From Clostridia bacterium (GTDB taxonomy: Bacteria > Bacillota > Clostridia > TANB77 > CAG-508), in the NCBI GenBank assembly GCA_048355915.1, contig DBGCHZ010000037.1, forward strand, positions 907 through 64,906: a stretch of DNA of 64,000 bases. Reading direction: 5' to 3'. Positions within the stretch are counted from its first letter, which is position 1, and every line of letters starts with the position of its first letter. Made by a program: the position numbers and the translations under genes. The notes under the pieces are model-generated. The model saw only the letters and a program-made list of their open reading frames with translations, was not told where the DNA came from and did not search any database. This document shows positions 3,501 through 60,389 of the stretch, piece after piece.

Positions 3501-3504
3501 TTTT

Positions 3505-3540
3505 TAAAGGCATATAACTATTTAAGTTATATGCCTTTAA
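3505..3540. terminator. 13-bp perfect stem hairpin just after gyrB stop (AAGGCATATAACT/AGTTATATGCCTT); no clean T-run
   Basis: inverted repeat read directly from the sequence. Confidence 0.4.
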
Positions 3541-4085
3541 TCTATAAAGCTAATAATAATCTCAGTTAAAACTAATATACATAATTTTCAAACCTAATAT
3601 ATATTACTATATAAATAAGCTATCAACCACATATATTAATCAGTCACTCGACTACTAATACACTTTTAGCAACTATATTCATCCTAATTATAGGACTAAT
3701 AATAACCACATCAAATATAAGAATAATCTTAGCTCAAATATATTACTTATTTTTTCAACCATATAAAAATAACAAGAAATAAAATATAAAATATAGCTTA
3801 AAAACAAATAATATACTCTTATCGCCGACATATATTAATATATTTAATACACCAATATACATCTTTGCTCGAATATTAATAAACTAATAAATAATCTATT
3901 AATATTCTTTGCTCAACTATTATTAACCTTATAAGATTATTATGAACAGAATTAAAAAATATATTCAGAAAAATAAAAAAATTTAAAATTAAAATAACAA
4001 AAATAATAATTGACAATCATACTTTAAATATTAAGTGTAAAATCATTTTAATATATTTTTGTCGAAGAATGTCAAAATGTTTTTA

Positions 4086-4114
4086 TTGACAAGCTATGTA
4101 AAATATTGTAAAAT
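4086..4114 (+). promoter_or_regulatory. sigmaA-type promoter TTGACA-17-TAAAAT upstream of the VirB4-like gene
   Basis: hexamers read directly; RBS GGAGGTG at 4127-4133. Confidence 0.5.
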
Positions 4115-4138
4115 ACAAAAAATACAGGAGGTGATTAT

Positions 4139-6709
4139 ATAGCTAAAAAAAGTAAAACTATTCAAGAATGGATAGAAATAAAAAATATTTTTAATGAAGG
4201 AATTATAGAATTAGAAAATAACAAATTTATTAAAATATTAAAAATAACTCCAATTAATTATAATTTAAAATCTGATTTGGAGAAATCATCAATATTAAAT
4301 TCATATAAAATTTTTTTAAAAACTTGCAATTTTGATATTCAAATATTAATTCAAAGTAATAAAGAAGATTTAAGTCATCATATTTCAAAAATAAAAAATA
4401 ATTTAAAAAATGAGAAAAATGAAAATTTAAAAATTATATCAGAAAATTATATCGAATATATTATCAATTTAAATAAAATAAAAAAATCATCATCAAAAGA
4501 CTTTTATATAATTATATCTAATGAAAAAATAAAAAATAATGAAAATATAAATTCATATGAAATAACTAAAAATGATTTAAAAGAAAAATATTTTAAAATA
4601 AAAGAATGTCTATCAAGATGTGGAAATTTTGTTATTGAAATTAATGAAAAAGAAAAAATTGAAGAAATATTTTTTTCTTTTTTAAATACGAGAAATTATT
4701 TTAATAATATTTTTAATTATAATAAATAAAAATAATTAAATAAAAAAATTAATTATTAAAATAAATTAAATAAAATAATTAATTATTAAAACAAATAAAA
4801 TAAATTAAATAAAAAATTAATAATTAAAATAAATCAAATAAAAAATTAATAAAAATAGAGGAGGAAAAATAAAATTCTAAAAAAAATTAAAAATGAAATA
4901 AAAAATAAAATATTTAAAGGAGGCATAACAACAAAAGATAAAATTGCACCAGCATATATAAATTTAGAAAATCCAAAATATATTGAAATTGATAATATGT
5001 ATTTTGCAGGTTTAGCTATTGTAAATTATTATAGAGAACAAACAGATATCATATTAAAAACATTGATTGAAACAAATATTAATATGAATATATCAATTTT
5101 TTATGAGAAACAAGATTCATACAAAACTATAAAAGATTTAACTTATCATATTGGAAATGTAGGGGTAGAGGTAAAAGGAAGCAACGAAAATAGACAAGAT
5201 ATAGATATTGCAGCTTTTACATATAATGATGCAAAATATATTAGGAAAGAAATGCAAGTTAATAATGAAGATATGTATTTTTTATATGTATACATAATTG
5301 TATATTCAAAAGATATCCAAGAGTTAGAATATTACTTAAATAAGATTGAAGGTATTACACAAAGTAAAGGACTACAAACGAGAAGGACAAATTTTAGAGA
5401 AGAAGAATTATTTTTATCATGTTTACCTACAATGTCAAATAATAAATTAATAAAAGAAATGGCGAGAAGAAATGTTTTAACAACTGGATTATTAGCAACA
5501 TATCCGTTTATATCCTCAACAATATTCGACCAAGATGGAATTTTTATAGGAACAAATATATATAATAATTCCTTAGTATTTATAGATAGATATGACAATA
5601 AAAAATATAAAAATGCAAATATATGTATATTTGGAACAAGTGGAGCAGGAAAATCTTTTTATACAAAATTATTAATATTAAGATATAAATTATTAGGAAT
5701 AAATCAATATATCATTGATCCAGATAGAGAGTATGATAATATTTGTGAAAAATTAGAAGGAACAAATATTAAAATAGGACCAAGTTCTAGTACATATATA
5801 AATATTTTAGATATAAGGAGTGAAAGCTTAGAAGATGGAGAAAATGGATATTTAGCAACTAAAATTGGTAAATTAATAGGATTTTTTAATTTAATTTTTG
5901 GACAATTAAATGAAGAAGAAAAAGCTTTATTAGAGGAAAAATTAATAGAAACATATAATTTAAAAGGAATAAATTTTAATGATGAAAGTTTATATAAAAA
6001 AAGCGAAGAAAAAATTACAGGAAAAGAATTTAAGGAAAGTCAAGATATGCCATTATTAGAAGATTTATATAATTTATTAATTTTAGATAAAAAAACTAAA
6101 AAATTTGCAATAAAATTAATTCCATTTATAAAAGGTTCTATGAAATTTTTTAATAATTATACAAATATAGAATTAGAAAAAGATTTAATAATAGCAGATG
6201 TATATGATTTAGGAGAAGAAAATTTAAAATATGGAATGTATTTATTTATTGATATTTTTTGGGACAAAATAAAAGAAAACAGAAAAGAAAAAAAGGCAAT
6301 TTATTTAGATGAAATTTGGAGACTTATAGGAGTAACATCAAATAAAGATGTAGCAAGTTTTATTTATAAAATATTTAAAACCATAAGAAAATATGGAGGA
6401 AGTAGTGTAGCCATAACACAAGATATATCAGATATTTTTAGCTTAGATAATGGGACATATGGAAGAAGTATATTAAATAATTCAAGTATAAAAACATTTT
6501 TTGCATTAGAAGAAGAAAATATAAAAATATTATCAGAATATACAAATTTAACAGAAAAGGAAAAAGTAGAAATTAAATCATTAAAAAGGGGAGAATGTCT
6601 AATGTTTGTAGGAGAAGATCATATTCTTACAAAAATAGAATGTTCAGATTTTGAAAGGCAAATAGTAGAAGGGAATAAAAATAATGAAAAAAATTCTTAC
6701 AGCAATTAA
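4139..6709 (+). pseudogene. VirB4/TrsE/TcpF-family conjugation ATPase, interrupted
   Basis: N-terminal domain (4139-4729; no in-frame ATG, ATA at 4139 after the RBS) resembles the Tn916 Orf16-type N-terminus. The same frame reopens at 4880 and continues KDKIAPAYINLENPKYIEIDN... through Walker A GTSGAGKS, IIDPDREY, Walker B IYLDEIW, ITQDISDIF to 6709. The two parts are separated by a 150-bp in-frame segment carrying 7 TAA codons and one TAG. Confidence 0.6.
4730..4879. repeat. degenerate ~30-bp tandem AT-only repeat (AAATAAATTAAATAAAATAATTAATTATTAAAA-like, about 4 units) inside the VirB4 reading frame
   Basis: seen directly; length is exactly 150 bp (50 codons), in frame with both gene parts. 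Confidence 0.7.
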
Positions 6710-8087
6710 TAATCCTAATTTAAATAAAAAATTATCAGAACAAGAATTTATAGAAATTCCATATAAAGATATACAATATAAAGAAGCAATTTTAGAAATA
6801 TTAAATGAAGATAATTATTTTGATATTATTATAATAAATGAAAAATTACCCGGAGAAATTAATTTTATAGAATTAATTAAAAAAATAAAAAAAATTAATA
6901 AAAAAATAAAAATAATAATTATTTTAGAAAAAGAAGATGAAATAAAAGAAAATGAATTAAAAAAAATAAATATTAATAAAATTTATTATAATAATAAAAT
7001 TACATTAGAATATTTAATAAAAATAATAAAAGAAAAAGAAATTAATAAAGAAGAAGAATTAAAAAAAGAAATTAATGAATTAAAACAAATTATAAAAATG
7101 AATGAATTTAAAAATGATAAAAAAAATAATAAAAAATTCCCCATACAAAATAAGATTTTTTATCACAAAGAAATATTTAAGAAGCCATTATCGATTATTA
7201 ACAAGATAAAATTAAAACAAAATAAAATTAACATAAAAGAAAATGACGAAGGGACTATGGTTAATATAGTTGGAGATAAAGAAAGTGGTAAGAGTGTTAT
7301 AACCCTAATGTTAGCCAATATACTTTCAGACAAAAATTATAGTATTTTAATAATAAATATTAATTCAGAAGAATTAGATTTTTATTCATATATTTTAAAT
7401 TATAAAAAAGACAATACAAAAAAGTTTTATGTCAAAAAGAAAAATTTTATATCAAAAACCAAATCCATAAATTTCCAAATAAATAAAAATATAATTAAAA
7501 AAATTTTAAAAATAAAAAAAGAAAAATTAAAAAATAAAATATATAAATTTAAAAATTTTTATAACATTGAAAAAAATATAAATAATATATTAAAAGATTA
7601 TAATAAAAATATTAAAATTTTAAATATTAATAAATTAAATATAAATTATTTTAAAATAAAATATTTGAATAAAATAATAAAATATTTTAAAAATAATTTT
7701 AATTATATTTTTTTAGAAATAAATTATAATGAAAAAATAAAAAATAAAAAACTAAAAAAAATATTAATTAGAAATTATTTAAAAAATATAGATAAAAATT
7801 TAATTATTTTAGAACCAAATAAAATAGGAATATTAAAGACAGAGAAAATTATAAATAAATTAAATATAATTGAAAAAGAAAAAATAAATATAAATATAAT
7901 TATAAATAAAAATAGTAAAAGTTCTATAAATAAAGAAATAATAAATAAATATTTTTTTAATTATAAAATATTAACCGTAATTAATAATAACACGGTATTT
8001 GAAAAAGTAATAAATAATAAAAAAATATTAAAAAATAATTTAGTATATTTAAAATTAAAAGAGGCAGTAAGAAAAATAGTTGAATAA
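6684..8087 (+). CDS. extremely K/I/N-rich protein: receiver-like N-terminus plus degenerate P-loop (GDKESGKS), possibly ParA/MinD/TadZ-like fold
   Basis: 467-codon ORF in a 25% GC genome; overlaps the VirB4 stop by 26 nt (translational coupling); RBS GAAGGGAA. Confidence 0.45.
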   Translation: MKKILTAINNPNLNKKLSEQEFIEIPYKDIQYKEAILEILNEDNYFDIIIINEKLPGEINFIELIKKIKKINKKIKIIIILEKEDEIKENELKKININKIYYNNKITLEYLIKIIKEKEINKEEELKKEINELKQIIKMNEFKNDKKNNKKFPIQNKIFYHKEIFKKPLSIINKIKLKQNKINIKENDEGTMVNIVGDKESGKSVITLMLANILSDKNYSILIININSEELDFYSYILNYKKDNTKKFYVKKKNFISKTKSINFQINKNIIKKILKIKKEKLKNKIYKFKNFYNIEKNINNILKDYNKNIKILNINKLNINYFKIKYLNKIIKYFKNNFNYIFLEINYNEKIKNKKLKKILIRNYLKNIDKNLIILEPNKIGILKTEKIINKLNIIEKEKININIIINKNSKSSINKEIINKYFFNYKILTVINNNTVFEKVINNKKILKNNLVYLKLKEAVRKIVE

Positions 8088-8169
8088 AAAATTAATAAAT
8101 TAAATAAATATAAGTTAAATAAAAAATAAAATAAATAAATAAAATTAAAATAAAAAATGAGAAATTTAT

Positions 8170-8889
8170 ATGGAATTAATTAACAATATTGAAAGAGAAA
8201 AAAATAATAATTTATTAAATAATAATGAACAAAATAATTTTTTAGAAACAACATTAGGAAAAGTAATAAATACTGGGATAGATATAGGCATAAGGGCAAT
8301 TTTTCCTGATTTTATTGAAGATGAAATAATTAATTTAAAAGATAATATTTTTGATTATGGAATTGTTGATGGAATAAAAGAAACTATTGATGAGGCAATA
8401 AATTTAGGAAAAAGTGCAGTAGGAATATTTACAGGAAATTTTGAAAATGTTGAGCAAATGCAAAATGCCATAGAAAAAGGAGGTCTAATAGATGGAATAT
8501 CAGAGTTATTATCTTTTGCAGTAGATAAAGCACAAAAGTCTGGAATAATAAATTATTCAATTGGAAATACGATAGAAAAAGGAAAAAATATTATATTAAA
8601 TAATATAGAAAGTAATATAGAAAAAACTTTTTCAGACCAAATTATTTCTGTTGATAAAATGAATAAATATATTAATAATTGGAAAGAAAGTTTTAAAAAT
8701 AAGGATTTTGAAAAAATGGAAAGAGACTATAAAAAAATTCAAAAAGAAAGACAGAACTTAGTTCCATTAGAAAAAACATTGCAAGATACAAAAGCAGTAG
8801 AAATATTACATAATTTAATTAAAAATAATGGGAATAATTTTAACTTAACACAAGAAGAAATGGAATTAGCAAATAAATTAAACAAATAA
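8170..8889 (+). CDS. hypothetical protein
   Basis: 239-aa ORF with ordinary composition; no family recognised. Confidence 0.4.
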   Translation: MELINNIEREKNNNLLNNNEQNNFLETTLGKVINTGIDIGIRAIFPDFIEDEIINLKDNIFDYGIVDGIKETIDEAINLGKSAVGIFTGNFENVEQMQNAIEKGGLIDGISELLSFAVDKAQKSGIINYSIGNTIEKGKNIILNNIESNIEKTFSDQIISVDKMNKYINNWKESFKNKDFEKMERDYKKIQKERQNLVPLEKTLQDTKAVEILHNLIKNNGNNFNLTQEEMELANKLNK

Positions 8890-8929
8890 AATTTATGAAT
8901 TAATAATCCATAAATTCTATAATATATTT

Positions 8930-9283
8930 TTATTTATTATTATATTTTTTTAAATAAGTAAAAGAACAATGAATTAATTCATAAATATATTCAACAGTTT
9001 CAGAAGGACAATTATTTAATATAGTATTTATTTTATTAATTGTATCGGTATTTTCTAATTTACCAAAAAGTATATAATCAGAAGAACTACCAGTATAAGA
9101 AACAATTTTACTTAAAGTTTTTAAACTTAAAGATCTTTCACCTCTTTCAATTTGCCCTAAAAATACTTCAGATATATCTATTATTTCAGAGAATTTTTCT
9201 CTACTCATATTAAATTGTTCTCTTAATTTTCTAATTCTTTCTCCTACTAATACATTATCAATTTGTTTTATATAATCCTGCAT
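8930..9283 (-). CDS. XRE-family helix-turn-helix transcriptional regulator
   Basis: HTH LRKLREQFNMSREKFSEIIDISEVFLGQIERGERSLSLKTLSKI; start chosen at the ATG preceded by AAAGGAA. Confidence 0.7.
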   Translation of the reverse strand: MQDYIKQIDNVLVGERIRKLREQFNMSREKFSEIIDISEVFLGQIERGERSLSLKTLSKIVSYTGSSSDYILFGKLENTDTINKINTILNNCPSETVEYIYELIHCSFTYLKKYNNK

Positions 9284-9462
9284 AAAAATAATTCCTTTCA
9301 TAACAGTATAAATATTTAAGTATTTATATATTATATAATAAATTTTCAACAATACTAATATGCTAAAATCAAATATAAAAAGAATACTAAAAGCAAAAGT
9401 ATGAAAGTATAAAAAAATGAAAAAAGACGAAAATATAAGTAAACAAATTAAAGGAGGAAAAA

Positions 9463-9792
9463 ATGGAAAGATTTGAAATAGAAATAAAAGATTTATTAGA
9501 TAATTTTTATGATTCAGAATATGAAAATTTAGATAAAATAATTATTAAATGTGAAAAAACTAAAAAAATGGAGAAAATAAAAAGTTCAAAAGAAAAAGTA
9601 TGGAAAGAATTTGAAGAAAAAATTAAAATAGATAATGAGATATTAAGTAATACAAAAGAAAAAATAGAGAATAACGAAAACAAAAGATTATCAATTTATA
9701 ATAAAATAATGTATAAACAAGGTTTTATTGATGGAATTAATTTATTAATAAATTGTATATCAAAAAATAATGAAAAGTCCCACAAATACTAA
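9463..9792 (+). CDS. hypothetical coiled-coil protein
   Basis: strong RBS AAAGGAGGA; divergent from the XRE gene. Confidence 0.4.
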   Translation: MERFEIEIKDLLDNFYDSEYENLDKIIIKCEKTKKMEKIKSSKEKVWKEFEEKIKIDNEILSNTKEKIENNENKRLSIYNKIMYKQGFIDGINLLINCISKNNEKSHKY

Positions 9793-9820
9793 GTTTCCCT
9801 AAACTTTTCCCCTAAAATAC

Positions 9821-9849
9821 TTGCAAAATTTTATTTGTTATAATATAAT
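9821..9849 (+). promoter_or_regulatory. gyrA promoter TTGCAA-17-TATAAT
   Basis: hexamers read directly, 40 bp upstream of gyrA. Confidence 0.55.
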
Positions 9850-9885
9850 ACAAATGTAGAAATAACAATGGAAAGAGGGAGAATA

Positions 9886-23290: not shown

Positions 23291-23572
23291 TCCGTATAAA
23301 ATAAATGAAAATAACATAAAAAATTATGATATTTTTACGTATTTATCTTTAATAATATTCTTATCAAAATATCAAATAATTAAAATGTAAAATCATAATG
23401 TAATAATTTTGAAATAAAAATGTAAATAAAAAGATAAAAGTATTAGATATTTAAAATCCCTAAATGAATATAAGAGAATGATAATTGGAGGAAAAAAAAT
23501 CTATTGAAAAAAACAAAAAATAGCTTAAAATATAATTATCATATTATAAATTATTGTAAAGAGGGATTGCAT

Positions 23573-26500
23573 ATGAAGAATTTTTATGAAAATTGCATAA
23601 AGAAAAAAATGAATAAAAAAATGGTAGTTATAGGTATTACTATAACTTTATTAAGCATATTAATAATAAACAATAGTTTTGTAGTAAAAGCGATAGAACA
23701 AATAAATGTTAAAGAAGAAAATGAAGAAAGTAAGATAACAATAAATCAAGAAATTGAAAAGTATGTTAAGCTAGAAAATGGACAAACATTGTTACAAGAA
23801 AAAATTTGCGTAGAAATGGAAGATTTTAAAGAAAAAGAATATGAAATAATAAAGGAAAAAGCACCTAAAATTCAAAATCAATTCCCAGAATCAACAATAG
23901 TTTTACTTAATGGCAATAAAATAGATGAATCACTTTATAAATATAAACCAGAAAGTGGAGAAATAGAAATAACAATAAAAAAAGAAAACAATATTGAATA
24001 TTGGAGAAATGAAAAAGAAGAGTATAAAATAATTTATAAATATAAAAATTTAGATATAACAGAAGAAAATATAATTTTAGATACAGAAATAATAACTAAA
24101 TTAGAAAATACAAGTAGTGAAATAAAAAACAAAAACACAAAAGATATAAAATTGATTGAAAGTGGAGAGAATGTTTCTATATCAGGAAAAATGACAAATG
24201 AAATATATAAAGGATATATATATGAAAATGAGGAAAATGAAACAACATTTAATGAGATATACAATGTAGAAATTTCTAATAAGGAAGATGTAAATGAAAT
24301 TTTTATAAAAAATGGAGAAACATATTTTATGAAAGATAATTCTAAAAAAATAGATGTAAAAGGTAATATATGTTTTAAAAGTACTAAAATTTTAAAAGAT
24401 GATATGTTAAATATATTAGGCGAAAAAGGAACAATTACTATAAAAAATGAGAATGGAGATATATTGTCTGTAATAAACAAGGATACAAAAGAAGACGAAT
24501 ATGGAATTATAGAAATAACTTATAATGAAAAAGATGTAAAAAATTTAGAAATAACAACAACAAATCCTATTAATGAAGGTAGTTTAAAAATAGTAAATAG
24601 TAAAGCAATATTACCAAATACCGAATATTCAAAAAAAGAATTAAAAGAATGTAATAAATTAAAGCAACAAATAAGTGCAAATGAAAGTAACTATGAAATA
24701 GAATCAAATTTATTAGATACAACTTTACAAGCAGATTTTAATGTGAATAAAACAGAATTATCTACAATGATGGAAAATCAAGAGATAGAAATAAAAACAA
24801 TATTAAAATCATATAACAATACAATGGATTTGTATGAAAATCCAACAATAAAAATAACACTACCAGAAGAAATAGAAGAAATTACATTAAAAGAAGAACC
24901 AAAAATTTTATACAATGAAGAGTTAAAAATAAAAAATATAAATATAGAAAAAAATGAAATAAATATTCAATTAGAAGGAAACCAGACAAAATACAATGAA
25001 GAAGCAATTGAAGGAACAGTGATAGATTTAATATTTAATGTAAAATTAAATAAAGAAGCTACAAATGCAAAAAAAAGTATTAATATGATAGTACAAAATC
25101 AAAATAAAGAAATAAATTTAGAAAAAGAAATAAATATAATTTCTCCAAAAGAAATTATATCATTAAATAATATAAAAGAGTTAGGAATAGAAACCTATGG
25201 AATTGAAGAAGATTCAATTATAAACATAGACAGAAAAGACAAGAAAAAACAAATAAGCATAAATTCTCAAATTATAAATAATAAAGAAAAAGAAATATCA
25301 AAAGTAAAAGTTATAGGTGAATTTCCAACAAATGGAGAAAGACAAGTAAGAAAAAATAAAATAGAAAATAACTTAAACTTAGAATTAAATTCAAAAATTA
25401 ATATAGAAGGAAAAGAATGTAAGATTTATTATACAGAAAATAATAATGCGACAGAAGAGTTAGATAATGTAGAAAATGGATGGCAGGAAAATTTTGATGA
25501 ATTAACTAATGTAAAGAAATATATGATAATAATAAACAAAATTGCTCAAAATGAAAAAATTGAATTTAATTATAAAGCAACAATACCAGAAAATTTAGAT
25601 TATAATCAACAAGCAATTGAAGGATATAGAGTAATATATGATAATGAAGAAACACAATCAGAAGAAGTCATAGAATCAACATATATAGAAATGACAACAG
25701 GAAAAGGTCCAGTAATAGAGGGAGATTTGAAAGGCTTTATAGGAGAAAAAGAAATAGTAGAAAATACAAACTTAAAAGCAGGAGAAGAAATTACTTATAA
25801 AATAAATCTAAGAAATACTGGTACAGAAGACTCAGAGAATGCAAAAATAAGTTTAGATATACCAACTGGAATGTATTATAAGAAAGACAAAAGCAAAAGA
25901 AATTTAGAATTGGACTTAGGAAATATAAAAGCAAATGAAAACAAAAATATAAATATTGGTTTAGTGGTAGATGAAAATTTAGCTGAAACAAAAAGTATAG
26001 AAAGTAAGGTAAAAATAAAATACAAAGATATTGAAAAAGAAACAAATATTATTAAATATAATATAGTTCCTTCTGAAATTATAGGGAAAATAGAGATGAT
26101 AACAAATAATGAAACAACATTTATAGAAGGAGATATAATAGAATATAGAGCAACAGTAAAAAACAATAGTAATGAAAAATTAGAAAACATAAAATTTAAA
26201 TGGAACATACCAGAATTTTGTAAAATAAATTCACAATCAATTTTAGGCAAAGACAATTGGCCAGAAACAAATTTTAAACCTGATGAAATTATAAATATTA
26301 AAAGTTTAGAACCAAAAGAAAGTGTAAAAATAAGCCTGTTTGTAAGTATTGGAGAAGTAGTAAAGGAAAATGAAAAATTGGTTGTAGGTGCAACAATAGA
26401 AAAAGGTGAGAATAAGTACATAGTACCATCTTCAGAAGAAATGCCAGTATATAGTATGAACAATTTTGAAATATCTATGGAAGCCAATAATGAAAATGGA

Positions 26501-27916
26501 TTTGTAGAGTCAGGAGAAGAAATTATATATAAAATATTTGTAATTAATAAAAATACAATAAAAGCTACACCAATTATATTAGACAAAATACCAGAGCAAT
26601 TAAAAATAAATGAAATAACAATAAATGGAGAAGAACCTAAAAAAGGTGAAATCGAAGAAAAAGAAAACAATAATATATATATACATACAGAATTTCAAGC
26701 AGGAGAGAAAAAAACAATAACAATAAAAACTTTAGTAAATAAAAAAGAATTAGCAGTACAAGACGAACAAATAGAAAATAAAGCAATATTAACAACTGAA
26801 AAACAAAAAAGAATAGAAAGTAATTCTGTAAAACATATAATTAGCAGAAAAAATGATAATGAAAACAATAATAATAATGGACCAAATGAAAATAATAAAG
26901 AAGAATATAAAATAAATGGAATAGTTTGGGAAGATACTAGTAAAGATGGGATATTAGATAATCAGGAAAAAAGATTAAAAGATATAGAAGTATTTTTGAT
27001 GAATGTAAAAACAAACAAAATAGAAGTTGATGAAAATGGAAATGCAATAAAAACAAAAACTTTAGAAGATGGTAGTTATATATTATCTAATATAAAAGAA
27101 GGAGAATATTTAATAGTATTTAAATATGACAATACTAAATATAAAATAACAACATATAAAGCAGAAGGAATAAGTGAAGAAAAAACATCAAAAGCAATAA
27201 ATAAGAAAATGAACATTGAGGGAACAGATGACATTTATGGAGTAACAGATACAATAAAAGTATTAGATAAAAACATTTCTAATATAAATATGGGATTAAT
27301 AGAAACAGAGAAATTCGACTTAAAATTAGATAAATATATAAAGAATGTTAAAGTAGAAAATAGTGCCATAAAAAATATTTATGATTATAAAAATACACAA
27401 TTAGCAAAAGTAGAGCTTGATGCAAAAGAAATAAACAACACAAAATTAACAATAGAATATAATATTGTTATAAGTAATCAAGGAGAGATTCCAGGTTATA
27501 TAAAAAATGTTGTAGACTATATTCCAAAAGGATTTAGTTTTAATAAAGAAAAAAATAAAGGATGGTATGAAAAAGAAGGAAACTTATATAATGAAAGTTT
27601 AGCTAATGAGAAATTAAATCCAGGTGAAGCAAAAATAATAACATTAACACTTGAAAAAAATACAAATGAAAAAGAAATGGGAACATATTCAAATTTAGCA
27701 GAAATAAAAGAAAGTTATAATGAATTAGGAATACAAGATATAAATTCTAAAGAAGGAAATAAAAAAGAAGGAGAAAATGATATAAGTACAGCATCAATAA
27801 TTATCAGTATAAAAACAGGAGAAAGCATATTATATATTACATTAATTATTTCATGTGTTTTAATAATAGCAGTAGGAATTGTATTTATAAAGAAAAAAGT
27901 ACTTAATATAAAATAA
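23573..27916 (+). CDS. giant cell-surface protein with DUF11 repeats and Cna-B-type domains; C-terminal SIKTG + TM + KKK tail
   Basis: ATG at 23573 follows AGAGGGA; a TTG at 23504 is an alternative start. Signal peptide present. DUF11-like units (ITYKINLRNTGTEDSENAKISLDIPTGM) and a Cna-B/SdrD-B-like unit (DGILDNQEKRLKDIEVFLMN...GSYILSNIKEGEY). Confidence 0.8.
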   Translation: MKNFYENCIKKKMNKKMVVIGITITLLSILIINNSFVVKAIEQINVKEENEESKITINQEIEKYVKLENGQTLLQEKICVEMEDFKEKEYEIIKEKAPKIQNQFPESTIVLLNGNKIDESLYKYKPESGEIEITIKKENNIEYWRNEKEEYKIIYKYKNLDITEENIILDTEIITKLENTSSEIKNKNTKDIKLIESGENVSISGKMTNEIYKGYIYENEENETTFNEIYNVEISNKEDVNEIFIKNGETYFMKDNSKKIDVKGNICFKSTKILKDDMLNILGEKGTITIKNENGDILSVINKDTKEDEYGIIEITYNEKDVKNLEITTTNPINEGSLKIVNSKAILPNTEYSKKELKECNKLKQQISANESNYEIESNLLDTTLQADFNVNKTELSTMMENQEIEIKTILKSYNNTMDLYENPTIKITLPEEIEEITLKEEPKILYNEELKIKNINIEKNEINIQLEGNQTKYNEEAIEGTVIDLIFNVKLNKEATNAKKSINMIVQNQNKEINLEKEINIISPKEIISLNNIKELGIETYGIEEDSIINIDRKDKKKQISINSQIINNKEKEISKVKVIGEFPTNGERQVRKNKIENNLNLELNSKINIEGKECKIYYTENNNATEELDNVENGWQENFDELTNVKKYMIIINKIAQNEKIEFNYKATIPENLDYNQQAIEGYRVIYDNEETQSEEVIESTYIEMTTGKGPVIEGDLKGFIGEKEIVENTNLKAGEEITYKINLRNTGTEDSENAKISLDIPTGMYYKKDKSKRNLELDLGNIKANENKNINIGLVVDENLAETKSIESKVKIKYKDIEKETNIIKYNIVPSEIIGKIEMITNNETTFIEGDIIEYRATVKNNSNEKLENIKFKWNIPEFCKINSQSILGKDNWPETNFKPDEIINIKSLEPKESVKISLFVSIGEVVKENEKLVVGATIEKGENKYIVPSSEEMPVYSMNNFEISMEANNENGFVESGEEIIYKIFVINKNTIKATPIILDKIPEQLKINEITINGEEPKKGEIEEKENNNIYIHTEFQAGEKKTITIKTLVNKKELAVQDEQIENKAILTTEKQKRIESNSVKHIISRKNDNENNNNNGPNENNKEEYKINGIVWEDTSKDGILDNQEKRLKDIEVFLMNVKTNKIEVDENGNAIKTKTLEDGSYILSNIKEGEYLIVFKYDNTKYKITTYKAEGISEEKTSKAINKKMNIEGTDDIYGVTDTIKVLDKNISNINMGLIETEKFDLKLDKYIKNVKVENSAIKNIYDYKNTQLAKVELDAKEINNTKLTIEYNIVISNQGEIPGYIKNVVDYIPKGFSFNKEKNKGWYEKEGNLYNESLANEKLNPGEAKIITLTLEKNTNEKEMGTYSNLAEIKESYNELGIQDINSKEGNKKEGENDISTASIIISIKTGESILYITLIISCVLIIAVGIVFIKKKVLNIK

Positions 27917-27932
27917 AAGAAAGGAGGTAGAG

Positions 27933-30900
27933 ATGGATAGATTAAAAAATAGAAAATATGTTGCTTGTATAATTATAATGTTCTTAATATTAATATTTTT
28001 AAAAGGAAATACTGTACAAGCGCTTTGGTTAGGACAAACAGGAATAACTATTAATGTAACACCAGGACTTACAGGAGCTCACTTTAATATGAGCAATCCA
28101 GGAACAAATGCATATTGTATTCAGCAAGGACAAAGATTAAATGATTATAACAATGATGGAGCAATGTTTAAAGTAACTAGGCAAGTTCACATATCAGGAG
28201 ATGAAGCACACTGGGAAGCAATCAATGGAGCATCAGCGACAAAAAAAGATCCATTAAATGTACAAATGGCTTGGATTATAAATCAGGGAGATCCAGGAAG
28301 TAACCATATAGCAGGTTACTACTCTGAAAAACAAAAAGCAATTTATCAAATATTTCAATCTTGGAGTGATATGTTGGGAATGTCAGGAGGATTAGCAATA
28401 AATGGTGGATCATATACATCATATTTTGTAAATGAATCTGCCAAGTATTATGAATCTTGGAAAAGTCAAACAGATGCATATGTAAATAATAATACTCCAG
28501 ATATAAAAAATATGAAGAAGGAAGTATACAAAGATCCATCATCGGGAAAAGAATATATTCAAGTAGGCCCAATAAATTTAACATATAATTCTAGATATAA
28601 AAATGCAACTGTGTATAATCAAAATGGTTCACCTGTAAAAGTAAAATATGCAAGATATGAAGGTAATACTTTAAGACTATATGACAATATAAATGATGCA
28701 TCAAAATCAAATCAAAATTTTTATATAATGGTAGATACATCTGAAAATGTTAGTACAATAACATTGAAAGCAACTGTAACTGCAAATAGACAAGATTTAT
28801 CAGCTGATGTTTGGGTATTACAAGAACAGAGCAATATGGGAAGACAAAATTGGATAGTAGCAGAGGGACAAATAAATAATAAATCAACTAATGCAGAAAT
28901 AACAATTGGACCAATAGAAATATTAGGAAACTTAAAAATAAAGAAAATAGACATAGATAGCAAAAAGCCATTGGCCAAAGTTGGATTTAAATTATACTAT
29001 AAAAATGCAAATAAATATGTAGAAAGTGCAGATGGAAATAAAGTAGCAACATATACAAGTGATATAAACAAGGCAAAAGAATTTTTTACAGATAGTAATG
29101 GAATAGTAGAGATAAAAAAATTAAAAATGGGAGAATATATAATATATGAAACAAAAAACCCTAATCAAGGATATGAACATATAACTACTCCTGTAAATGT
29201 AAAAGAAATACAAGTAAATAAACCTAAAAATGAAGTTACTATTGGAAATAAAAGAAAATATGTGGATTTGTCAGGAATAGTATGGGAAGATATTGGAGAT
29301 GGAAAACAAACATATAGAAACAATTTATATGGCTCAGAAGACAAACTAATTGAAGGAATGACAGTAAAATTGTTGGAAAACGGAAATGAAGTAATGAAAA
29401 CTACAACAGACAAAAGTGGTAAATACATATTTAAGGAAGTAGAAATAGATAAATTATCAAGCTACTATATATCTTTCACATATAATGGAATGAGCTATGA
29501 ATGTGTTCCAAAAAGTTTAGATAAAGCAAATGGAAGCAAAGCGACAGAAGGAAAAGAGAGAGAAAAATTCAATAATAGATTTGCAGAAATAAAAAATGGA
29601 GAAGCAATAGGAACTAATGGAAATAAGACACCAATAGAATATAATAAAAACGATAAAAAATACGAAAGTCAAATCGATTTAGGCAAGAAAGAAACTAATG
29701 GAAAAAAACCATATTATGGAGTATATGAAAAATATACAATAACATCAAATACATACAATGCATACAATGGTTATTTGAATTCGATAAAGACACCAGATGA
29801 AATTAGAAAAAATGATATCAAAGAAATAACAGACATAAATTTAGGGATATTTTTAAGAGAGCAACCAAATGCATCACTAATTAAAGACTTAAATAATGTA
29901 AAAGTATCAATAAAAGGACAAACACATACATATAATTACAGAGAGAGATTTAATAATTCTAAAGTATATACAGAAGGCAAAGAATTAAAAGACTTAGAAA
30001 CGCAGATAAAATTTCAGGGTAAATATTCTGAAATGACATATTCAAGACCATTATATGCTTCAGATATTTCATATGAAGGAACAGATGAATTGACAGTTAG
30101 GGCAATATATGAAATAGGTCTAATAAATAAAAGTACAAATTTAAAAATGAAAGTATCAGAAATACATGATTATTTTGATAGTAAATATGAATTAAAAGCA
30201 ATTGGAAGGAAAATAGATAAAAAAGGATATGTAATTGATGATACATCAATAAAAAGACAAGAACTAAGTGAACAAAACAACTATAAACATATTCAAATAT
30301 CAACTAATATAATAATAGAACCTCAAAAAGAAGAAAAAATATATGTAGAATTAGAAGTATCAAAAGATAAAATAGTAGAAATTTTAGATGGTAATAAGAA
30401 CATAAAATTAGACAATATAGCAGAAATAGGAAGATATGGAACATTAGATCCAAATGGAAATGTATATGCAGGTATAGATGAAAATTCAGAACCAGGAAAT
30501 GCAAATCCTTTAGATCCAAAAACATATGAAGATGATACTGATAAAGCTCCAGGATTGAGTTTAATTTTACAAAAAAATGCTAGAAAAGTAACAGGAAAAG
30601 TATTTTTAGACAATATAGAAACCTCTAAAGCTCCAACAACAATTATGACCGGAGAAGAAAGAAAAGGAAATGGACAGTATGATAACGGGGAAAAAGGAAT
30701 AAAAGATGTAGAAATTAAATTAGTATATGCTGATAACCCAGATAAAGTAGCAAAAATTTATGATGAATCTTCAAAAACGCTTACAAAAGATGCAATTGTA
30801 AAAACAAGTGCAGAAGGTGATTTTGAAATTAGTGGTTTTATACCAGGAAATTACGAATTAAAATATATCTGGGGAGATAAAGAATATAAAGTTCAAAACT

Positions 30901-32147
30901 ATAAAGGAACAGTAATAGATGAAAGCATATGGAATAAAAATGAACAAAATAACGAATGGTATAAAACAACAGAACCTCGTTACTCAGATGCGGTAGATAA
31001 TTATGAAACAAGACAAAATATAGATAATCAAACTAAAAAAGTAATAAATTCTAATATAAAGACAATTAATGATTATATAGAAGGCTCAAAGCTAGTGCTA
31101 AAAGATGGGGCAGAAGAAACAATGATAACAAAGATGGATTCTAAAACTCAAGACTTTAAAGTCAATATAGAATATAGTAATGAAAGTTCAGATATAAAAG
31201 AAGAGTTTGAAAAAAATCCAGACGGAAGCTTAAAATTAGATTCAGAAGGAAATCTAATATCAAAAGAAGAATTTAAAAATACATTAAAGAATGTAGATTT
31301 TGGAATTGTAGAAAGACCAAAACAACAATTAAATATAGAAAAACATATAAAACAATTAAAAATAACACTTCCTAATGGAGAAATATTGGTAGATGCAAAA
31401 GTGGAAAAAGGACCAGATGGAAAATATCATTTAGCAGAAAAAACTCCATATACAGTATATTTACCAAGAAGTAATTCAGCAGAAGGAGCAATAAAAATAG
31501 AAATAGACCAAGAATTAATAGAAGGTGCAAAGCTAGATGTAATATATGAAATAACTGTAAGAAATACAAGCGAATTAGATTATATTTCAGAAGGATATTA
31601 TAAATTTGGAAATCCAAAAGAAAATCCAGTAAAATTAACACCAAGTATAATAGACTATTTAGATGAAAGTTTGATAATAACAGATAAAGTAACACTAGAC
31701 AAATGGAATAAACTTTCTCTAGAAGACAAAAAAGAGTTATTTAAAAATGGTAGCTTAGATGAAAATTTGAAAAAATACATAGAAAAATTGAAAAGCATAC
31801 AAACACATATAAGTGAAAAACCACTAAAAGCTACCGAAGAAACAAAAGTAGAATTAATATCATCAAGATTACTTTCAAAGAACGATGAAATAATTCTAAG
31901 TAATAAAACAGAAATAATTGAAATAGATAAAACAGGAGGAAGACCACCAATACCAATACCAGGAAACTTTAATCCATTAACAAATGAGCCAAGAGAGCCA
32001 GATGTTGATACCTCAGAGGAAATAATTATTATACCACCTACGGGATTGTCAAATAATAAAATAATTTATATTATATTAGGAATATCAACTTTAGGAATAT
32101 TAACATCAGGAATAATTCTAATAAAAAAATATGTTTTAAAGAAATAA
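27933..32147 (+). CDS. giant cell-surface protein with Cna-B/SdrD-B-like and DUF11 domains; LPXTG-like IPPTG sorting signal
   Basis: RBS AAGGAGG, signal peptide. Cna-B-type units (GIVWEDIGDGKQ..., KKIDIDSKKPLAKVGFKLYY...MGEYIIYETKNP). C-terminus IPPTG + hydrophobic helix + KKYVLKK. Confidence 0.8.
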   Translation: MDRLKNRKYVACIIIMFLILIFLKGNTVQALWLGQTGITINVTPGLTGAHFNMSNPGTNAYCIQQGQRLNDYNNDGAMFKVTRQVHISGDEAHWEAINGASATKKDPLNVQMAWIINQGDPGSNHIAGYYSEKQKAIYQIFQSWSDMLGMSGGLAINGGSYTSYFVNESAKYYESWKSQTDAYVNNNTPDIKNMKKEVYKDPSSGKEYIQVGPINLTYNSRYKNATVYNQNGSPVKVKYARYEGNTLRLYDNINDASKSNQNFYIMVDTSENVSTITLKATVTANRQDLSADVWVLQEQSNMGRQNWIVAEGQINNKSTNAEITIGPIEILGNLKIKKIDIDSKKPLAKVGFKLYYKNANKYVESADGNKVATYTSDINKAKEFFTDSNGIVEIKKLKMGEYIIYETKNPNQGYEHITTPVNVKEIQVNKPKNEVTIGNKRKYVDLSGIVWEDIGDGKQTYRNNLYGSEDKLIEGMTVKLLENGNEVMKTTTDKSGKYIFKEVEIDKLSSYYISFTYNGMSYECVPKSLDKANGSKATEGKEREKFNNRFAEIKNGEAIGTNGNKTPIEYNKNDKKYESQIDLGKKETNGKKPYYGVYEKYTITSNTYNAYNGYLNSIKTPDEIRKNDIKEITDINLGIFLREQPNASLIKDLNNVKVSIKGQTHTYNYRERFNNSKVYTEGKELKDLETQIKFQGKYSEMTYSRPLYASDISYEGTDELTVRAIYEIGLINKSTNLKMKVSEIHDYFDSKYELKAIGRKIDKKGYVIDDTSIKRQELSEQNNYKHIQISTNIIIEPQKEEKIYVELEVSKDKIVEILDGNKNIKLDNIAEIGRYGTLDPNGNVYAGIDENSEPGNANPLDPKTYEDDTDKAPGLSLILQKNARKVTGKVFLDNIETSKAPTTIMTGEERKGNGQYDNGEKGIKDVEIKLVYADNPDKVAKIYDESSKTLTKDAIVKTSAEGDFEISGFIPGNYELKYIWGDKEYKVQNYKGTVIDESIWNKNEQNNEWYKTTEPRYSDAVDNYETRQNIDNQTKKVINSNIKTINDYIEGSKLVLKDGAEETMITKMDSKTQDFKVNIEYSNESSDIKEEFEKNPDGSLKLDSEGNLISKEEFKNTLKNVDFGIVERPKQQLNIEKHIKQLKITLPNGEILVDAKVEKGPDGKYHLAEKTPYTVYLPRSNSAEGAIKIEIDQELIEGAKLDVIYEITVRNTSELDYISEGYYKFGNPKENPVKLTPSIIDYLDESLIITDKVTLDKWNKLSLEDKKELFKNGSLDENLKKYIEKLKSIQTHISEKPLKATEETKVELISSRLLSKNDEIILSNKTEIIEIDKTGGRPPIPIPGNFNPLTNEPREPDVDTSEEIIIIPPTGLSNNKIIYIILGISTLGILTSGIILIKKYVLKK

Positions 32148-32176
32148 TAATAAAGTAATTATTATAGTTAAGAATG

Positions 32177-32235
32177 AACCTAGATTATTGGATTTTATTT
32201 CAATAATCAGGTTCATTTTAATTTAAAACTATTGA
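32177..32235 (+). terminator. long hairpin terminator after the adhesin pair
   Basis: AATGAACCTAGATTATTG / CAATAATCAGGTTCATT with a 1-nt bulge. Confidence 0.55.
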
Positions 32236-32260
32236 CAATGAAAATAAAAGAGAATATAAT
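32232..32260 (+). promoter_or_regulatory. promoter TTGACA-17-TATAAT for tRNA-Lys(CTT)
   Basis: consensus hexamers read directly. Confidence 0.6.
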
Positions 32261-32292
32261 ATAAAAGTATTTGATAATTTAATTGTAAATAT

Positions 32293-32368
32293 GCACCATT
32301 AGCTCAGTTGGTAGAGCAACAGACTCTTAATCTGGAGGTCCTCGGTTCGAACCCGAGATGGTGCACCA
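32293..32368 (+). tRNA. tRNA-Lys (anticodon CTT)
   Basis: manual cloverleaf: acceptor GCACCAT/ATGGTGC, anticodon loop CTCTTAA, T-loop TTCGAAC, CCA end; terminator-like hairpin plus T-run at 32376-32410. Confidence 0.85.
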
Positions 32369-32535
32369 ATAAATAGAAAAAGTACATATATGAGTTCTAC
32401 TTTTTGTAGTATATTTCATATATGTATTTTTTATTTGCTAAATTAAAGTTTATAAAAGTAACACAAAAATAGTAACAATATTAATATTGAAAATGATATT
32501 TATTTATGATAGCATATTATGAGAAAGAGGAAAAA

Positions 32536-34222
32536 ATGAAAGAAAAATTAAAAAATAGTAAATATTTATTGATAATATTAATATCATCAATAATAATTTC
32601 ATTACCACTATTAAAAAGTAATATAGATGTATATTTCGATGATGGAATACAACATATAGGAAGAGCATATGAAACATATTTAGAAATACAAAACAGAGGT
32701 AATCCAAAAGTCTTATCAAATTTAACAAATGGATTTGGATATAGTTGGGACTTATTTTATGGACCGTTATCAACAGCCTTAATATTAATCGCAAAATTAA
32801 TAACAGGAACATTTATAAATAGCTATAAATTAGTATTATTTGTAGGAATATTACTTTCTGGAATTACAATGTATAAATTTATTAGTAAATTAACAGATAG
32901 TAAAATAACAGCTACAATAGCAAGTATTTTATATATGACAATGCCATATCATCTAAATGATATGTATATTAGAAATGCGTTAGGAGAATTTTTAAGTTAC
33001 ATATTTATTCCGCTAGTATTTTTAGGCATGTACAAATTATTTAATAAAGAAAAAGGCGAATGGACTATAAGTGTAGGGGCAATACGGACTAATTATTACA
33101 CATAATTTAATGAGCATACTTACTGCAATAATGGCATTTATATATTTATGTATAAATATTAAAAAATTAAAAGATATAAAAATAATAAAAAAGCTATTTA
33201 TAAATATAATATTAATAATGATGGTTAGTGCATTTTTTTGGATTCCATTATTAGAAACATATAATTTTGCAGAATATGAAGCATATCAAGAAGATGCAAT
33301 GGCAACAAAAAAATCATTCATGGATAGTGGATTAGAAATAAAACAATTATTTACTACATCAACATATTCAGAATATGTATATGAAATAGGTCCTCATATT
33401 ATAATAATGCTAATTTTATCCATATTTGCAATTAAAAATATTATAAAGAAAAAATATAAAAAAGAATATATATTATTTTTTATATTAGGATTTTTGAGCA
33501 TATTCATGTCAACTAAATATTTTCCATGGCAAATATTTAATGAAAAAGTAGCAATAATACAATTTACATGGAGAATGTTAGTATTTAGCGATTTTTTCTT
33601 TGTCATAATTTGTGCAATAAATATAGAAAATGTAATAAAGAAAACGAAAATAGCAGATGTAATTATTATTTCAACAATTGCAATATTATATTGTATGACA
33701 TTAAATAGATTTATACCAGTAAATGACAAAGTTTTAGAAATAAATGAGTGGAATATAGGTAATGTTACAAAAAATAAAACTGAAGCAATTGTAGCAATGG
33801 GGAAAGGAGAATATTTGCCAGTAAACAGCAATAAAAATAGAAAATATATACTTGAAAGAGAAAATACAATTGAAATTTTAAAAGGTAGTGGAAATATAAA
33901 AAGTTTAGAAAAAAATGGACAGAAATTAAAAGCAAATGTAGAAATATTTAAGGATAATACTATTTTAGAATTACCATACATATATTATCCAGGATATAAA
34001 ATAGAATTAAATGAAGAAGAAATAAAAGGTTTTGAAAGTGCAAATGGATTTTTAGCAATTTCAATGAATAAAAATAATAAAGGAATTATAGAAGTAAATT
34101 ATGAAGAAACAATATTAATGAAGATATCAAAAGTAATATCAGTTATAGGAATAATAGCATTTATAGTATATATAAATATAGAAGAGATAAAAAAATTGTA
34201 TATAAAATTTAAAATATTATAA
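32536..34222 (+). pseudogene. GT-C fold membrane glycosyltransferase (YfhO-like), frameshifted
   Basis: multi-TM protein with an acidic first loop (YFDDGIQH). Frame 1 stops at 33105 and frame 2 is open from 33077. Deleting C33085 gives a continuous ...SVGAIGLIITHNLMSILTAIMAF... Confidence 0.5.
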
Positions 34223-56576: not shown

Positions 56577-57182
56577 CTAAAAATTATATTCAAAATTACT
56601 AAATGGCCATATTCTAGCAAGTACTACACCTTCTATTTTTTCTAATGGAATACAACCAAAATTTCTACAATCTTTACTTTCAGGTCTATTATCGCCCATA
56701 AGAAATAAAGTATTTTCAGGCACTACTAAGTCTGTAAATCCAGCTCCAAGTAAATCTGTTACGATTCCATTTTGTAAATAGTTTTCTTCAAGTTCATTAT
56801 TATTTATATATACTTTACCGTCCTTTATTTGAATATGTTCTCCTGGAAGAGCTATAACTCTTTTTATATAACTTTCTTTTCCAAATTCTAAACCATAATA
56901 CATAAGTTTTTTAAATAAATTTGTTGGCTCATTTTCGTATTTTGCAATTGGATTATTTAAGTTTATTTCTGATTCTTTGTACATTTTTTTACTAGGAGCT
57001 TCAAATGTTACAATATCACCTCGTGAGGGGATTTTATGAGAAATACGCATTGTTCTATTTAGAATTAACTTTTCACCTTCTTTTAATGTAGGAAACATTG
57101 ATTTCATTCTTACTTCAGTAGGTGTAGCAATAAAAAATCTAAATAATAAAGCTAAAATTATAGCAATAACTATACAATACAC
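56577..57182 (-). CDS. lepB: signal peptidase I (S26)
   Basis: TM helix, SMFPTL catalytic Ser box, GDNR box. The frame remains open upstream (..KILFKEILEW) with no ATG, so the true start is uncertain. Confidence 0.8.
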   Translation of the reverse strand: MYCIVIAIILALLFRFFIATPTEVRMKSMFPTLKEGEKLILNRTMRISHKIPSRGDIVTFEAPSKKMYKESEINLNNPIAKYENEPTNLFKKLMYYGLEFGKESYIKRVIALPGEHIQIKDGKVYINNNELEENYLQNGIVTDLLGAGFTDLVVPENTLFLMGDNRPESKDCRNFGCIPLEKIEGVVLARIWPFSNFEYNF

Positions 57183-59199: not shown

Positions 59200-59344
59200 A
59201 AAAAATACCTTCTTTCAAATTTTTTAAAAATCCTTGAAAAAAGGTTTAAATATATGATATAATACACATATAAAATACCTTTTCAAGGGTGTTTTCGATA
59301 GGGAAATGTGTTAGTCGGCGAAAACTATGTCACATTTTCCTTTT

Positions 59345-59971: not shown

Positions 59972-60146
59972 AAAAAGTTCCTCCTTGAAAGTATCTTTAT
60001 TTTACCACATAAAAAGGCTTATTGCAATATATTTATGAAAAAGTATCTTAAAAATTTTATTTTTTTTCAAAAAAGTATTGACAATCTAAAAAAGATAATA
60101 TATGATTACGGTATCTTAAAAAGATACAAAAGAAAGAGGTGAAAAA

Positions 60147-60389
60147 ATGAATACAACATTATTAAAATCAAAAATGGTATTGTTTGGAGATACTAACACA
60201 ACATTAGGAAAGGCATTAGGAATAGCATATCAAACAGTATCTGCTAAGATAAACAACACTAATGGGGCTGAATTTACACAAGGCGAAATACTAAAAATTA
60301 AAAATAGATATGAATTAACCCCTAAAGAAGTAGATGAGATTTTTTTTAACGAACAAGTATCTAAAAAAGATACAAACAATGCCGACTAA
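60147..60389 (+). CDS. Cro-like HTH protein
   Basis: divergent from the repressor; RBS AGAGGTG; HTH LGKALGIAYQTVSAKI. Confidence 0.6.
   Translation: MNTTLLKSKMVLFGDTNTTLGKALGIAYQTVSAKINNTNGAEFTQGEILKIKNRYELTPKEVDEIFFNEQVSKKDTNNAD

Follow-up and report, generated by a model that had tools for sequence, protein, structure and literature searches.

A stretch of 64,000 nucleotides from a Clostridia bacterium (assembly GCA_048355915.1, contig DBGCHZ010000037.1, positions 907 to 64,906), referred to here as the window, carries two adjacent genes for giant surface proteins, P1 and P2, which are fairly likely to constitute a conserved two-gene surface-fibre module of a very low-GC lineage of gut Clostridia with a genome of about 1.5 Mb, with P2 being an adhesin of the TIE (thioester/isopeptide) type and the neighbouring genes being independent of the pair. 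P2 is probably TIE-type because the predicted fold of its N-terminal tip has significant matches only among class II thioester domains and because two residues, Cys62 and Gln305, are near-universal among its homologues. The pair belongs to known kinds of proteins, the TIE proteins and the CLIPPER fibrillar adhesins; what is new here is a sequence-divergent family of thioester tips, an obligate P1-P2 module with partner-specific motif classes, and in-frame fusions between the two partners.

The open reading frames (ORFs) of P1 and P2 span 23504..27916 and 27933..32147, both on the plus strand and separated by 16 bp, in a window with a GC content of 22-27% that lies near the chromosomal origin, as judged from recF-gyrB...gyrA at its start. 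The features of the pair are as follows.

23573..27916, plus strand: P1 coding sequence, 1447 aa from ATG 23573; the maximal ORF (1470 aa) opens at TTG 23504
23573..23692, plus strand: P1 signal peptide, MKNFYENCIKKKMNKKMVVIGITITLLSILIINNSFVVKA followed by IEQ, read by eye from the translation
23693..25744, plus strand: P1 N-terminal 684 residues, about six predicted Ig-like beta-sandwich domains (AlphaFold2 (AF2) model m1137ca94f79b)
25757..26803, plus strand: P1 CLIPPER (DUF11) repeats and DUF7927 (Pfam PF01345, PF25549; TIGR01451)
26912..27211, plus strand: P1 SdrD B-like domain (Pfam PF17210, E 1.4e-9)
27806..27913, plus strand: P1 C-terminal anchor, SIKTG, ES, a 21-residue hydrophobic helix and IKKKVLNIK
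27917..27932, plus strand: P1-P2 spacer of 16 bp, with the P2 ribosome-binding site AAGGAGG and without a terminator
27933..32147, plus strand: P2 coding sequence, 1404 aa
28014..28940, plus strand: P2 thioester-domain-like tip, residues 28-336 (AF2 model and Foldseek)
28116-28118, plus strand: codon of P2 Cys62, in AYCIQ
28845-28847, plus strand: codon of P2 Gln305, in RQNWI
28926..29252, plus strand: P2 SpaA/CnaB-type domain (Pfam PF17802, 5e-17), with the E-box-like sequence YIIYETKNPNQGY
29277..29552, plus strand: first SdrD B-like domain of P2 (Pfam PF17210), a second copy lying further downstream
32031..32144, plus strand: P2 C-terminal anchor, IPPTG, LSNNK, a hydrophobic helix and KKYVLKK
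32171..32219, plus strand: terminator-like hairpin closing the predicted P1-P2 operon, followed by AUUUUAAUUU, a U-rich tail

An earlier note on this DNA, made from the sequence alone, had described two secreted proteins of 1470 and 1404 aa, 16 bp apart, built from DUF11 and Cna-B/SdrD-B-type folds and extremely rich in Lys. The gap and the length of P2 stand, and the Pfam matches to DUF11/CLIPPER, SpaA and SdrD_B bear out the domain types. The true start of P1 is most likely ATG 23573, on which a ribosome-binding site of its own (AGAGGGA), independent gene calls and the N-termini of homologues concur, so that P1 more likely has 1447 aa. Lys accounts for 13.1% of P1 and 11.5% of P2 versus 10.4% in the other 29 window genes, which is barely above background. 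The ATG of P2 has its ribosome-binding site 7 nt upstream, inside the spacer. The hairpin that follows P2 has a minimum free energy of -24.1 kcal/mol (z = -6.5), with 0 of 200 shuffled sequences folding equally well, and a second hairpin, located 3' of a tRNA-Lys(CTT) gene, reaches -21.8 kcal/mol (z = -6.3) and is associated with a U run. These two hairpins, together with a separate consensus promoter in front of the tRNA, indicate that the stretch comprises three transcription units, and positions 23573-32219 would make up a single bicistronic operon of P1 and P2.

It is quite likely that P2 residues 28-336 are a thioester domain. An alignment-based AF2 model of this region (pLDDT 85.9, pTM 0.77), compared with the Protein Data Bank (PDB) by Foldseek, rendered class II thioester domains (6FWY and 6FWV) as its top four matches, with E 6e-6 to 5e-5 and prob 0.95-0.99; these were the sole matches with E <= 0.001, and the next-best ones were about 100-fold weaker and corresponded to unrelated proteins. 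Three motifs define thioester domains, and the bonding Cys and Gln are the only residues of these conserved throughout (Miller 2018, PMC6194298). The [YFL]C-phi-zeta motif described there reads AYCIQ in P2, at Cys62, that written phi-Q-zeta-phi-phi reads RQNWI, at Gln305, and the TQXX-phi-W motif reads KQKAIY, opening the second helix of the model (105-121). Conservation of these positions was followed in 132 representatives, the 50%-identity set of a 424-member family. Cys62 is kept in all 132, as well as in 24/24 sequences of alignment A2, and across the representatives it is preceded by Y/F/L and followed by I/V/L and Q/E/N. Gln305 is kept in 131 of the 132, followed by N, then L/V/I/M, then I/L/M; the residue before it is hydrophobic (Y/W) in most members and R in P2. 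In the helix-2 motif, Q is found in 108/132 representatives and W/Y in 146/149, and T is not conserved. The succession of elements in the model (the Cys strand, three helices, a sandwich of about eight strands, and a 24-residue hairpin tipped by Gln) appears to mirror the class II topology described in PMC6194298. The tip would therefore be, on the grounds of fold, motifs and conservation, a divergent class II-like thioester domain, with a predicted internal thioester between Cys62 and Gln305 that could react covalently with a target amine.

This tip would be borne at the end of a stalk of ca. 1000 residues made of SpaA/CnaB, SdrD-B-like and CLIPPER-like domains. The SpaA domain matches the PDB pilin 3PHS, and its residues K338, E406 and N439 are invariant in 18 homologues of 30-78% identity (alignment A1), representing a putative isopeptide triad whose spacing is that expected of the CnaB type; SdrD_B (PF17210) matches P2 in two stretches (1.9e-12). 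P2 thus resembles the class II TIE proteins (BaTIE of Bacillus anthracis, 6FWV; Enterococcus faecium EfmTIE86, 6FWY; SaTIE of S. aureus) in combining a thioester-type N-terminal domain, a CnaB/SpaA stalk and a C-terminal sorting signal, and in a tip that has the three motifs, the near-universal Cys and Gln and, in its model, the Gln on a long hairpin after a beta-sandwich insert. It differs from them in the Cys-Gln spacing, 243 residues versus 171-204 in the known domains, in a stalk two to three times longer that mixes SdrD-B and CLIPPER-like domains, in the motif IPPTG instead of LPXTG, and in the partner gene, P1, which always precedes it.

Identical P2 sequences were found on 22 metagenome contigs, one of whose records is labelled human gut metagenome. 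With respect to the close relatives L009 and L010, the window shows almost no nucleotide similarity in the P1 gene and in the region of the P2 tip (27933-29250), and the C-terminal two-thirds of P2 (29252-32147) are 83% identical to them. Other members of the family bear different tips, including a ricin-type lectin, a dockerin and a Cys-rich domain. It seems that the tip is exchanged in the manner of a cassette.

P1 is, according to its model, an all-stalk fibrillar surface protein, predicted to consist of about six Ig-like domains, four CLIPPER repeats, DUF7927, an SdrD-B domain and a C-terminal CLIPPER-like domain. CLIPPER (DUF11) is an isopeptide stalk domain of fibrillar adhesins (PMC12617251). 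In P1 it is matched by Pfam PF01345 in four stretches (E 2.9e-19), the repeat being found also by NCBIfam (TIGR01451), and the SdrD-B region matches SdrD in the PDB (9e-14). The N-terminal 684 residues of the mature protein have no Pfam match; their AF2 model is all-beta (pLDDT 86.5), and the best Foldseek matches of this region were the Ig-like domains of PrgB (8BEG, 1e-18), integrin alpha legs and AgI/II C123. No distinct tip domain could be recognised in P1 from the AF2 model and Foldseek. P1 is therefore similar to the CLIPPER adhesins (PMC12617251; PDB 9IFR) in its tandem CLIPPER stalk, signal peptide, sorting signal and DSxPGN...EDD strand motif, and unlike them in having no recognisable adhesive head domain. 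Homologues of P1 amounted to 107, and a variant of it is present on a contig of 1.56 Mb.

The arrangement of P1 followed by P2 recurs in ca. 70 of the 75 loci kept, all in uncultured gut Clostridia, and 494 relatives were found in the species genomes of GTDB. The relatives listed are uncultured Clostridia, Clostridium sp. or Eubacteriales metagenome-assembled genomes, with record names suggestive of human, Hadza, rabbit and mouse gut samples. The pair is often duplicated, and the commonest patterns in the 75 loci were P1-P2-P1-P2 (23), P1-P2-FUSION (17) and P1-P2 (13). Gaps between P1 and P2 are typically of 14-27 bp, with a mode of 20-21. The spacer has been lost in 28 ORFs of 2700-3200 aa, which are in-frame P1-P2 fusions, the form also present in L009 and L010, the two closest other species. 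The fusions retain the P1 motif, the membrane helix and a basic Lys-rich loop, followed by a second, signal-peptide-like helix and a P2-type stalk, as in ...LLISIETG-IITYTIFAILAVGLLSVVILVI-KGKIKIKPFKNKKIKN-MLSVFIMTGMLGVVISSNVYG-FS... Their topology is out-in-out, so that both ectodomains stay extracellular, which argues for co-production of the two proteins at a 1:1 ratio and not for one continuous fibre. Such tight coupling, through a gap of 14-27 bp or a fusion by way of a two-helix membrane hairpin, would imply that both are made 1:1 at a single site of secretion. In distant relatives the pair sits 3' of mreC-mreD-PBP2-minC, indicating that the module moves independently of the genes that neighbour it in the window.

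Both proteins would be exported by means of their Sec signal peptides, as predicted from sequence, and both end in a pentapeptide of the form xxxTG, a hydrophobic helix and a Lys-rich tail, as the earlier note had read them: ...IISIKTG-ES-ILYITLIISCVLIIAVGIVF-IKKKVLNIK in P1 and ...IIIPPTG-LSNNK-IIYIILGISTLGILTSGIILI-KKYVLKK in P2. Its statement that these motifs are neither LPXTG nor the (S/P)PXTG of Clostridioides also held, (S/P)PXTG being taken strictly. Tails of the P1 type follow [IL][ILV]-[SG]-[IVL]-[KRSG]-T-G in 170 of 189 distinct tails, with the motif abutting the helix and, in 153 of these 170, TG directly against it; those of the P2 type follow [ITV][IV]-[TVLI]-P-[PSAN]-T-G, then two to four polar residues, in 188 of 216. 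The motif class is hence fixed per family, S[IV]xTG for P1 and xPxTG for P2. An alignment of the two C-termini, 48 residues long and 48% identical (E = 3e-5), places ISIKTG opposite IIPPTG, and the domain that precedes the anchor can be aligned as well; P1 and P2 are homologous in their final domain and in the anchor.

The features of sortase substrates defined in C. difficile are a signal peptide, a pentapeptide 17-45 residues from the C-terminus, a hydrophobic segment and two or more basic residues in a row (PMC4155245). All are present in P1, where SIKTG starts 36 residues from the end and is followed by the helix and KKK, and in P2, where IPPTG starts 38 residues from the end and is followed by the helix and KK...KK. 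As in the SrtB substrates of C. difficile, these are clostridial surface proteins with xPxTG, there cut between T and G, and the sortase is not encoded beside its substrates; the proline-less SIKTG recalls NVQTG of C. difficile CbpA, which also has a beta-branched residue at position 2. The differences are that position 1 is here T, I, V or L instead of S or P, and that the proline-less motif is a whole family-wide class instead of a feature of a single protein. P2 keeps the xPxTG type (IPPTG) that clostridial SrtB-like sortases cut between T and G, and its anchoring by a sortase is likely; that of P1, whose S[IV]xTG motif (SIKTG) lies directly against the membrane helix, is uncertain. The anchoring would most likely be carried out by a sortase whose gene is located at another place in the genome, and P1 may stay membrane-anchored.

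Several observations weigh against this interpretation of the pair. The P2 tip superposes poorly on the solved thioester domains (global TM score 0.22), so that the fold assignment by itself is not conclusive. Differently from the known class II domains, the tip is without detectable sequence similarity to thioester domains: it is matched neither by Pfam (TED, PF08341) nor by NCBIfam (TQXA domain), it rendered 0 PDB sequence matches by phmmer and by profile search, and PF08341 matches only one of 24 P2-family members, with E = 0.089. Neither IPPTG nor SIKTG is the canonical LPXTG or an experimentally cleaved motif, the nearest tested ones being the cleaved (S/P)PXTG and the NVQTG of CbpA; the P1 motif lacks proline, and this NVQTG, its nearest precedent, was not cleaved by SrtB in vitro. 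Finally, no sortase was found in the 64-kb window, as the earlier note had stated: there is no Pfam sortase match among the window ORFs of at least 100 aa that were scanned, a few antisense ORFs nested in scanned genes being left out, and no [TS][LIVM]x[TS]C sortase signature in any window ORF of at least 120 aa. The same negative result was obtained in 81 related loci: among their ORFs, including those up to 10 kb to either side, phmmer queries with the SrtA and SrtB of S. aureus rendered no match and a signature regular expression no genuine one.

In view of the proline-less motif, it could be that the xxxTG, at least SIKTG of P1, is not a sortase site, the helix serving as the tether and TG as a structural cap at the membrane interface. 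We regard this as rather unlikely. It would fit the position of TG against the helix in most P1 tails and the failure of SrtB to cleave NVQTG, as well as the fusions, which tolerate the motif within a membrane hairpin, and the class II thioester adhesin of pLS20, which works without sortases. However, every recognised tail of either family retains T and G, the succession of motif, helix and basic tail is exactly that of a sortase signal, and the P1 motif is the positional homologue of xPxTG in P2. The two motif classes could on the contrary direct two transpeptidation steps, as in heterodimeric sortase-assembled pili, with P2 joined through its Thr to a Lys of P1 and P1 then to the wall, which would produce a thioester-tipped fibre of ca. 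2800 residues; we consider this unlikely. The near-universal P1-P2 pairing and its tight coupling, the strict tie of each motif class to one partner, the lack in P1 of a tip domain of its own, and the E-box-like SpaA domain in P2 would all be in accordance with such a scheme. Similar to sortase-assembled pili (SpaA-type, or the Cpa-tipped pili of S. pyogenes), a thioester-tipped protein adjoins here a second fibre protein with a differing motif, and P2 has a SpaA-fold domain with an E-box-like sequence. But pilus loci normally carry a class C sortase and no sortase of any class was found by phmmer or motif in the 81 loci; YPK is absent from both P1 and P2, so that there is no YPKN-type pilin motif and no pilin-motif lysine; no polymerising backbone is evident; and both proteins have about 1400 residues versus 300-900 for pilus subunits. 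In addition, the fusions place P1 N-terminal of a P2-type stalk with a membrane hairpin in between, which fits independent anchoring equally well. The negative sortase searches in the window and in the 81 loci, and the lack of a YPKN motif, leave a classical pilus locus unsupported. It is more doubtful still that P1 and P2 form an obligate two-part covalent fibre of an undescribed kind, built by one or more sortases encoded elsewhere, with P2 on P1, P1 on the wall and the thioester, of a sequence class not recognised before, some 2800 residues away from the cell.

Two further explanations, both very improbable, would tie the module to its surroundings, and bearing on them are the following features downstream of the pair.

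32232-32260, plus strand: consensus promoter TTGACA-17-TATAAT, 12/12 match
32293-32368, plus strand: tRNA-Lys(CTT) (ARAGORN)
32506-33105 and 33110-34222, plus strand: GT-C (PTPS_related/YfhO-like) membrane glycosyltransferase, two ORFs (Pfam)

The earlier note had taken the whole 23.5-34.2 kb region as one locus for glycosylated pilus-like or adhesin fibres with a dedicated tRNA and a GT-C enzyme. YfhO-type GT-C enzymes are known to glycosylate surface polymers, the genes are adjacent and on one strand, and in L009 and L010 the order is likewise adhesin, tRNA, GT-C, CorA. The attribution to the tRNA of a promoter of its own proved correct, in the form of the 12/12 match given above, yet this promoter and the strong hairpins separate the region into three transcription units. 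The AAG codons, whose enrichment in the two ORFs the earlier note had suggested checking, are not enriched: they represent 9.0% of the Lys codons in P1, 11.2% in P2 and 10.9% elsewhere (Fisher p = 0.53 and 0.89). The syntenic relative L086, which has no adhesins, shows the order ...SDR, CBM, VanW, tRNA-Lys(CTT), CorA, PGA_cap, and the position of the tRNA between VanW and CorA in this adhesin-free locus indicates that the tRNA is ancestral and the adhesin pair variable cargo. A tRNA dedicated to the adhesins is rejected on the codon counts together with the synteny of L086. The adhesin pair in turn is conserved without the tRNA or the GT-C gene, the latter being missing from about 70 loci that have the pair. 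The GT-C gene is at a different genomic place in L086, its unsplit homologues are located between the dCMP deaminase gene and der-plsY-gpsA, with no adhesins there, and others are found upstream of SDR, again without adhesins; conservation in unrelated contexts of this sort had been named beforehand as what would speak against a link of the GT-C gene to the adhesins, and a linkage of the GT-C as an adhesin glycosylase is rejected in view of where the 70+ adhesin loci and the GT-C homologues are situated. In one strain, L004, which is 99.9% identical to the window up to 32371 and then diverges, an integrase element replaces the GT-C gene (14360-16247: a second copy of tRNA-Lys(CTT), a 518-aa tyrosine integrase and small phage-like genes); the second tRNA copy together with the integrase identifies the 3' end of tRNA-Lys(CTT) as an integration site. 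The one-locus proposal is thus already largely refuted by synteny: its fibrillar adhesin-like part stands, the pilus and the connection with the GT-C are not supported, and the tRNA-Lys(CTT) and the split GT-C are independent neighbours outside the module. Just as remote is the possibility that the pair are mating-pair adhesins of an integrative conjugative element, in the manner of PrgB of pCF10 or of the class II thioester adhesin that pLS20 needs for conjugation. Type IV secretion system (T4SS) genes, for a coupling protein and a pilin-like protein, are located 5 kb upstream (15257-18223), a VirB4-like ATPase gene lies at 4997-6709, and the best fold match of P1 is to the Ig-like domains of PrgB. 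But the same T4SS genes are present in adhesin-free L086, the pair of the distant relatives, after mreC-mreD-PBP2-minC, has no transfer genes nearby, and tRNA genes and housekeeping genes intervene between the T4SS region and the adhesins in the window. A role as conjugative-element cargo or mating adhesin is rejected on this synteny (L086 and the distant relatives).

Regarding the GT-C gene itself, the earlier note was right that it is YfhO-like and broken into two frames; a frameshift private to this DNA is what did not hold. The N-half matches PF10131 (27.2 bits versus a cut-off of 26.4) and the C-half weakly the C-terminus of YfhO (21.3 bits versus 28.5). The halves, in different frames, have 199 aa (maximal ORF; 189 aa by the gene callers) and 370 aa, unlike the unsplit YfhO/PTPS_related homologues, which have 550-580 aa with PF10131, PF09586 or PF13231. 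The junction, at 33074-33112 (...ACACATAATTTAATGA...), is the same in L009 (13818-15531) and L010 (12594-14268), and the split is identical in independent assemblies. The ratio of nonsynonymous to synonymous substitution rates (dN/dS) amounts to 0.17-0.24 in the N-half and 0.29-0.37 in the C-half, compared with 0.02-0.03 in CorA, values that place both halves under purifying selection, and C-half-only ORFs of about 370 aa persist down to ca. 42% identity. The junction shared with two other species and the dN/dS of 0.17-0.37 indicate that this is not a fresh lesion, and a recent frameshift or fresh pseudogene is thereby rejected. As judged from the sequences, the gene would be an old maintained split or a programmed frameshift, and its products may be a two-subunit enzyme or that of a programmed +1 frameshift.

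Other parts of the window contain further elements of mobile or divided character. The gyrB and gyrA genes are separated by 6.4 kb of DNA of 15-20% GC (3501-9867), which looks like an inserted element or its remnant. The gap includes the ATPase gene at 4997-6709, of VirB4/TraG-like type, a gene for a 467-aa receiver-like and ParA/MinD-like protein (6684-8087; 21.6% Lys, 11.7% GC) and, on the minus strand, a helix-turn-helix regulator gene (8930-9352). The block at 12553-18223, on the minus strand, contains DnaI-like and DnaB_2 replication-loader genes and then the T4SS remnants, encoding a 291-aa protein, a T4SS-pilin-like protein of 115 aa and the coupling protein; this block is syntenic in adhesin-free L086 and is therefore unlinked to the adhesins. 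Downstream of the pair, the region 42343-51856 includes a gene for a nonribosomal peptide synthetase with a single module and a terminal reductase (C-A-T-R; 45572-49906, minus strand), whose neighbours encode a histidine kinase, a receiver-HD protein and an acyl-CoA ligase-like protein. An HtrA-like protease is split into a Trypsin_2 ORF (52055-52762) and a PDZ ORF (52794-53207) in different frames, being either a second split gene or a pseudogene. A prophage-like region (57808-64000) carries a tyrosine integrase, a LexA/S24-type repressor, Siphovirus Gp157 and an AAA_24 ATPase, and a type I signal peptidase gene (56577-57182) is located just outside it.

Pathogens are the main source of the thioester ("chemical harpoon") adhesins and isopeptide-stabilised fibres known so far. 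The findings presented here indicate that an abundant uncultured lineage of gut Clostridia with small genomes possesses such genes by the hundred, arranged in a fixed module of two, which, judging by record names, is widespread in the uncultured gut Clostridia of humans, rabbits and mice, and they remove a false lead in that the tRNA-Lys(CTT) and the GT-C gene are outside the adhesin system. Since current sequence models do not see the P2 tip domain, the annotation of microbiomes counts too few covalent adhesins. The partner-specific motif classes, together with the membrane-hairpin fusions, offer a concrete, testable way into the specificity of sortases in commensal Clostridia, or into anchoring there that does not depend on them. 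Moreover, hypervariable tips on conserved stalks are the pattern that would be expected if the tips set the specificity for host or ligand.

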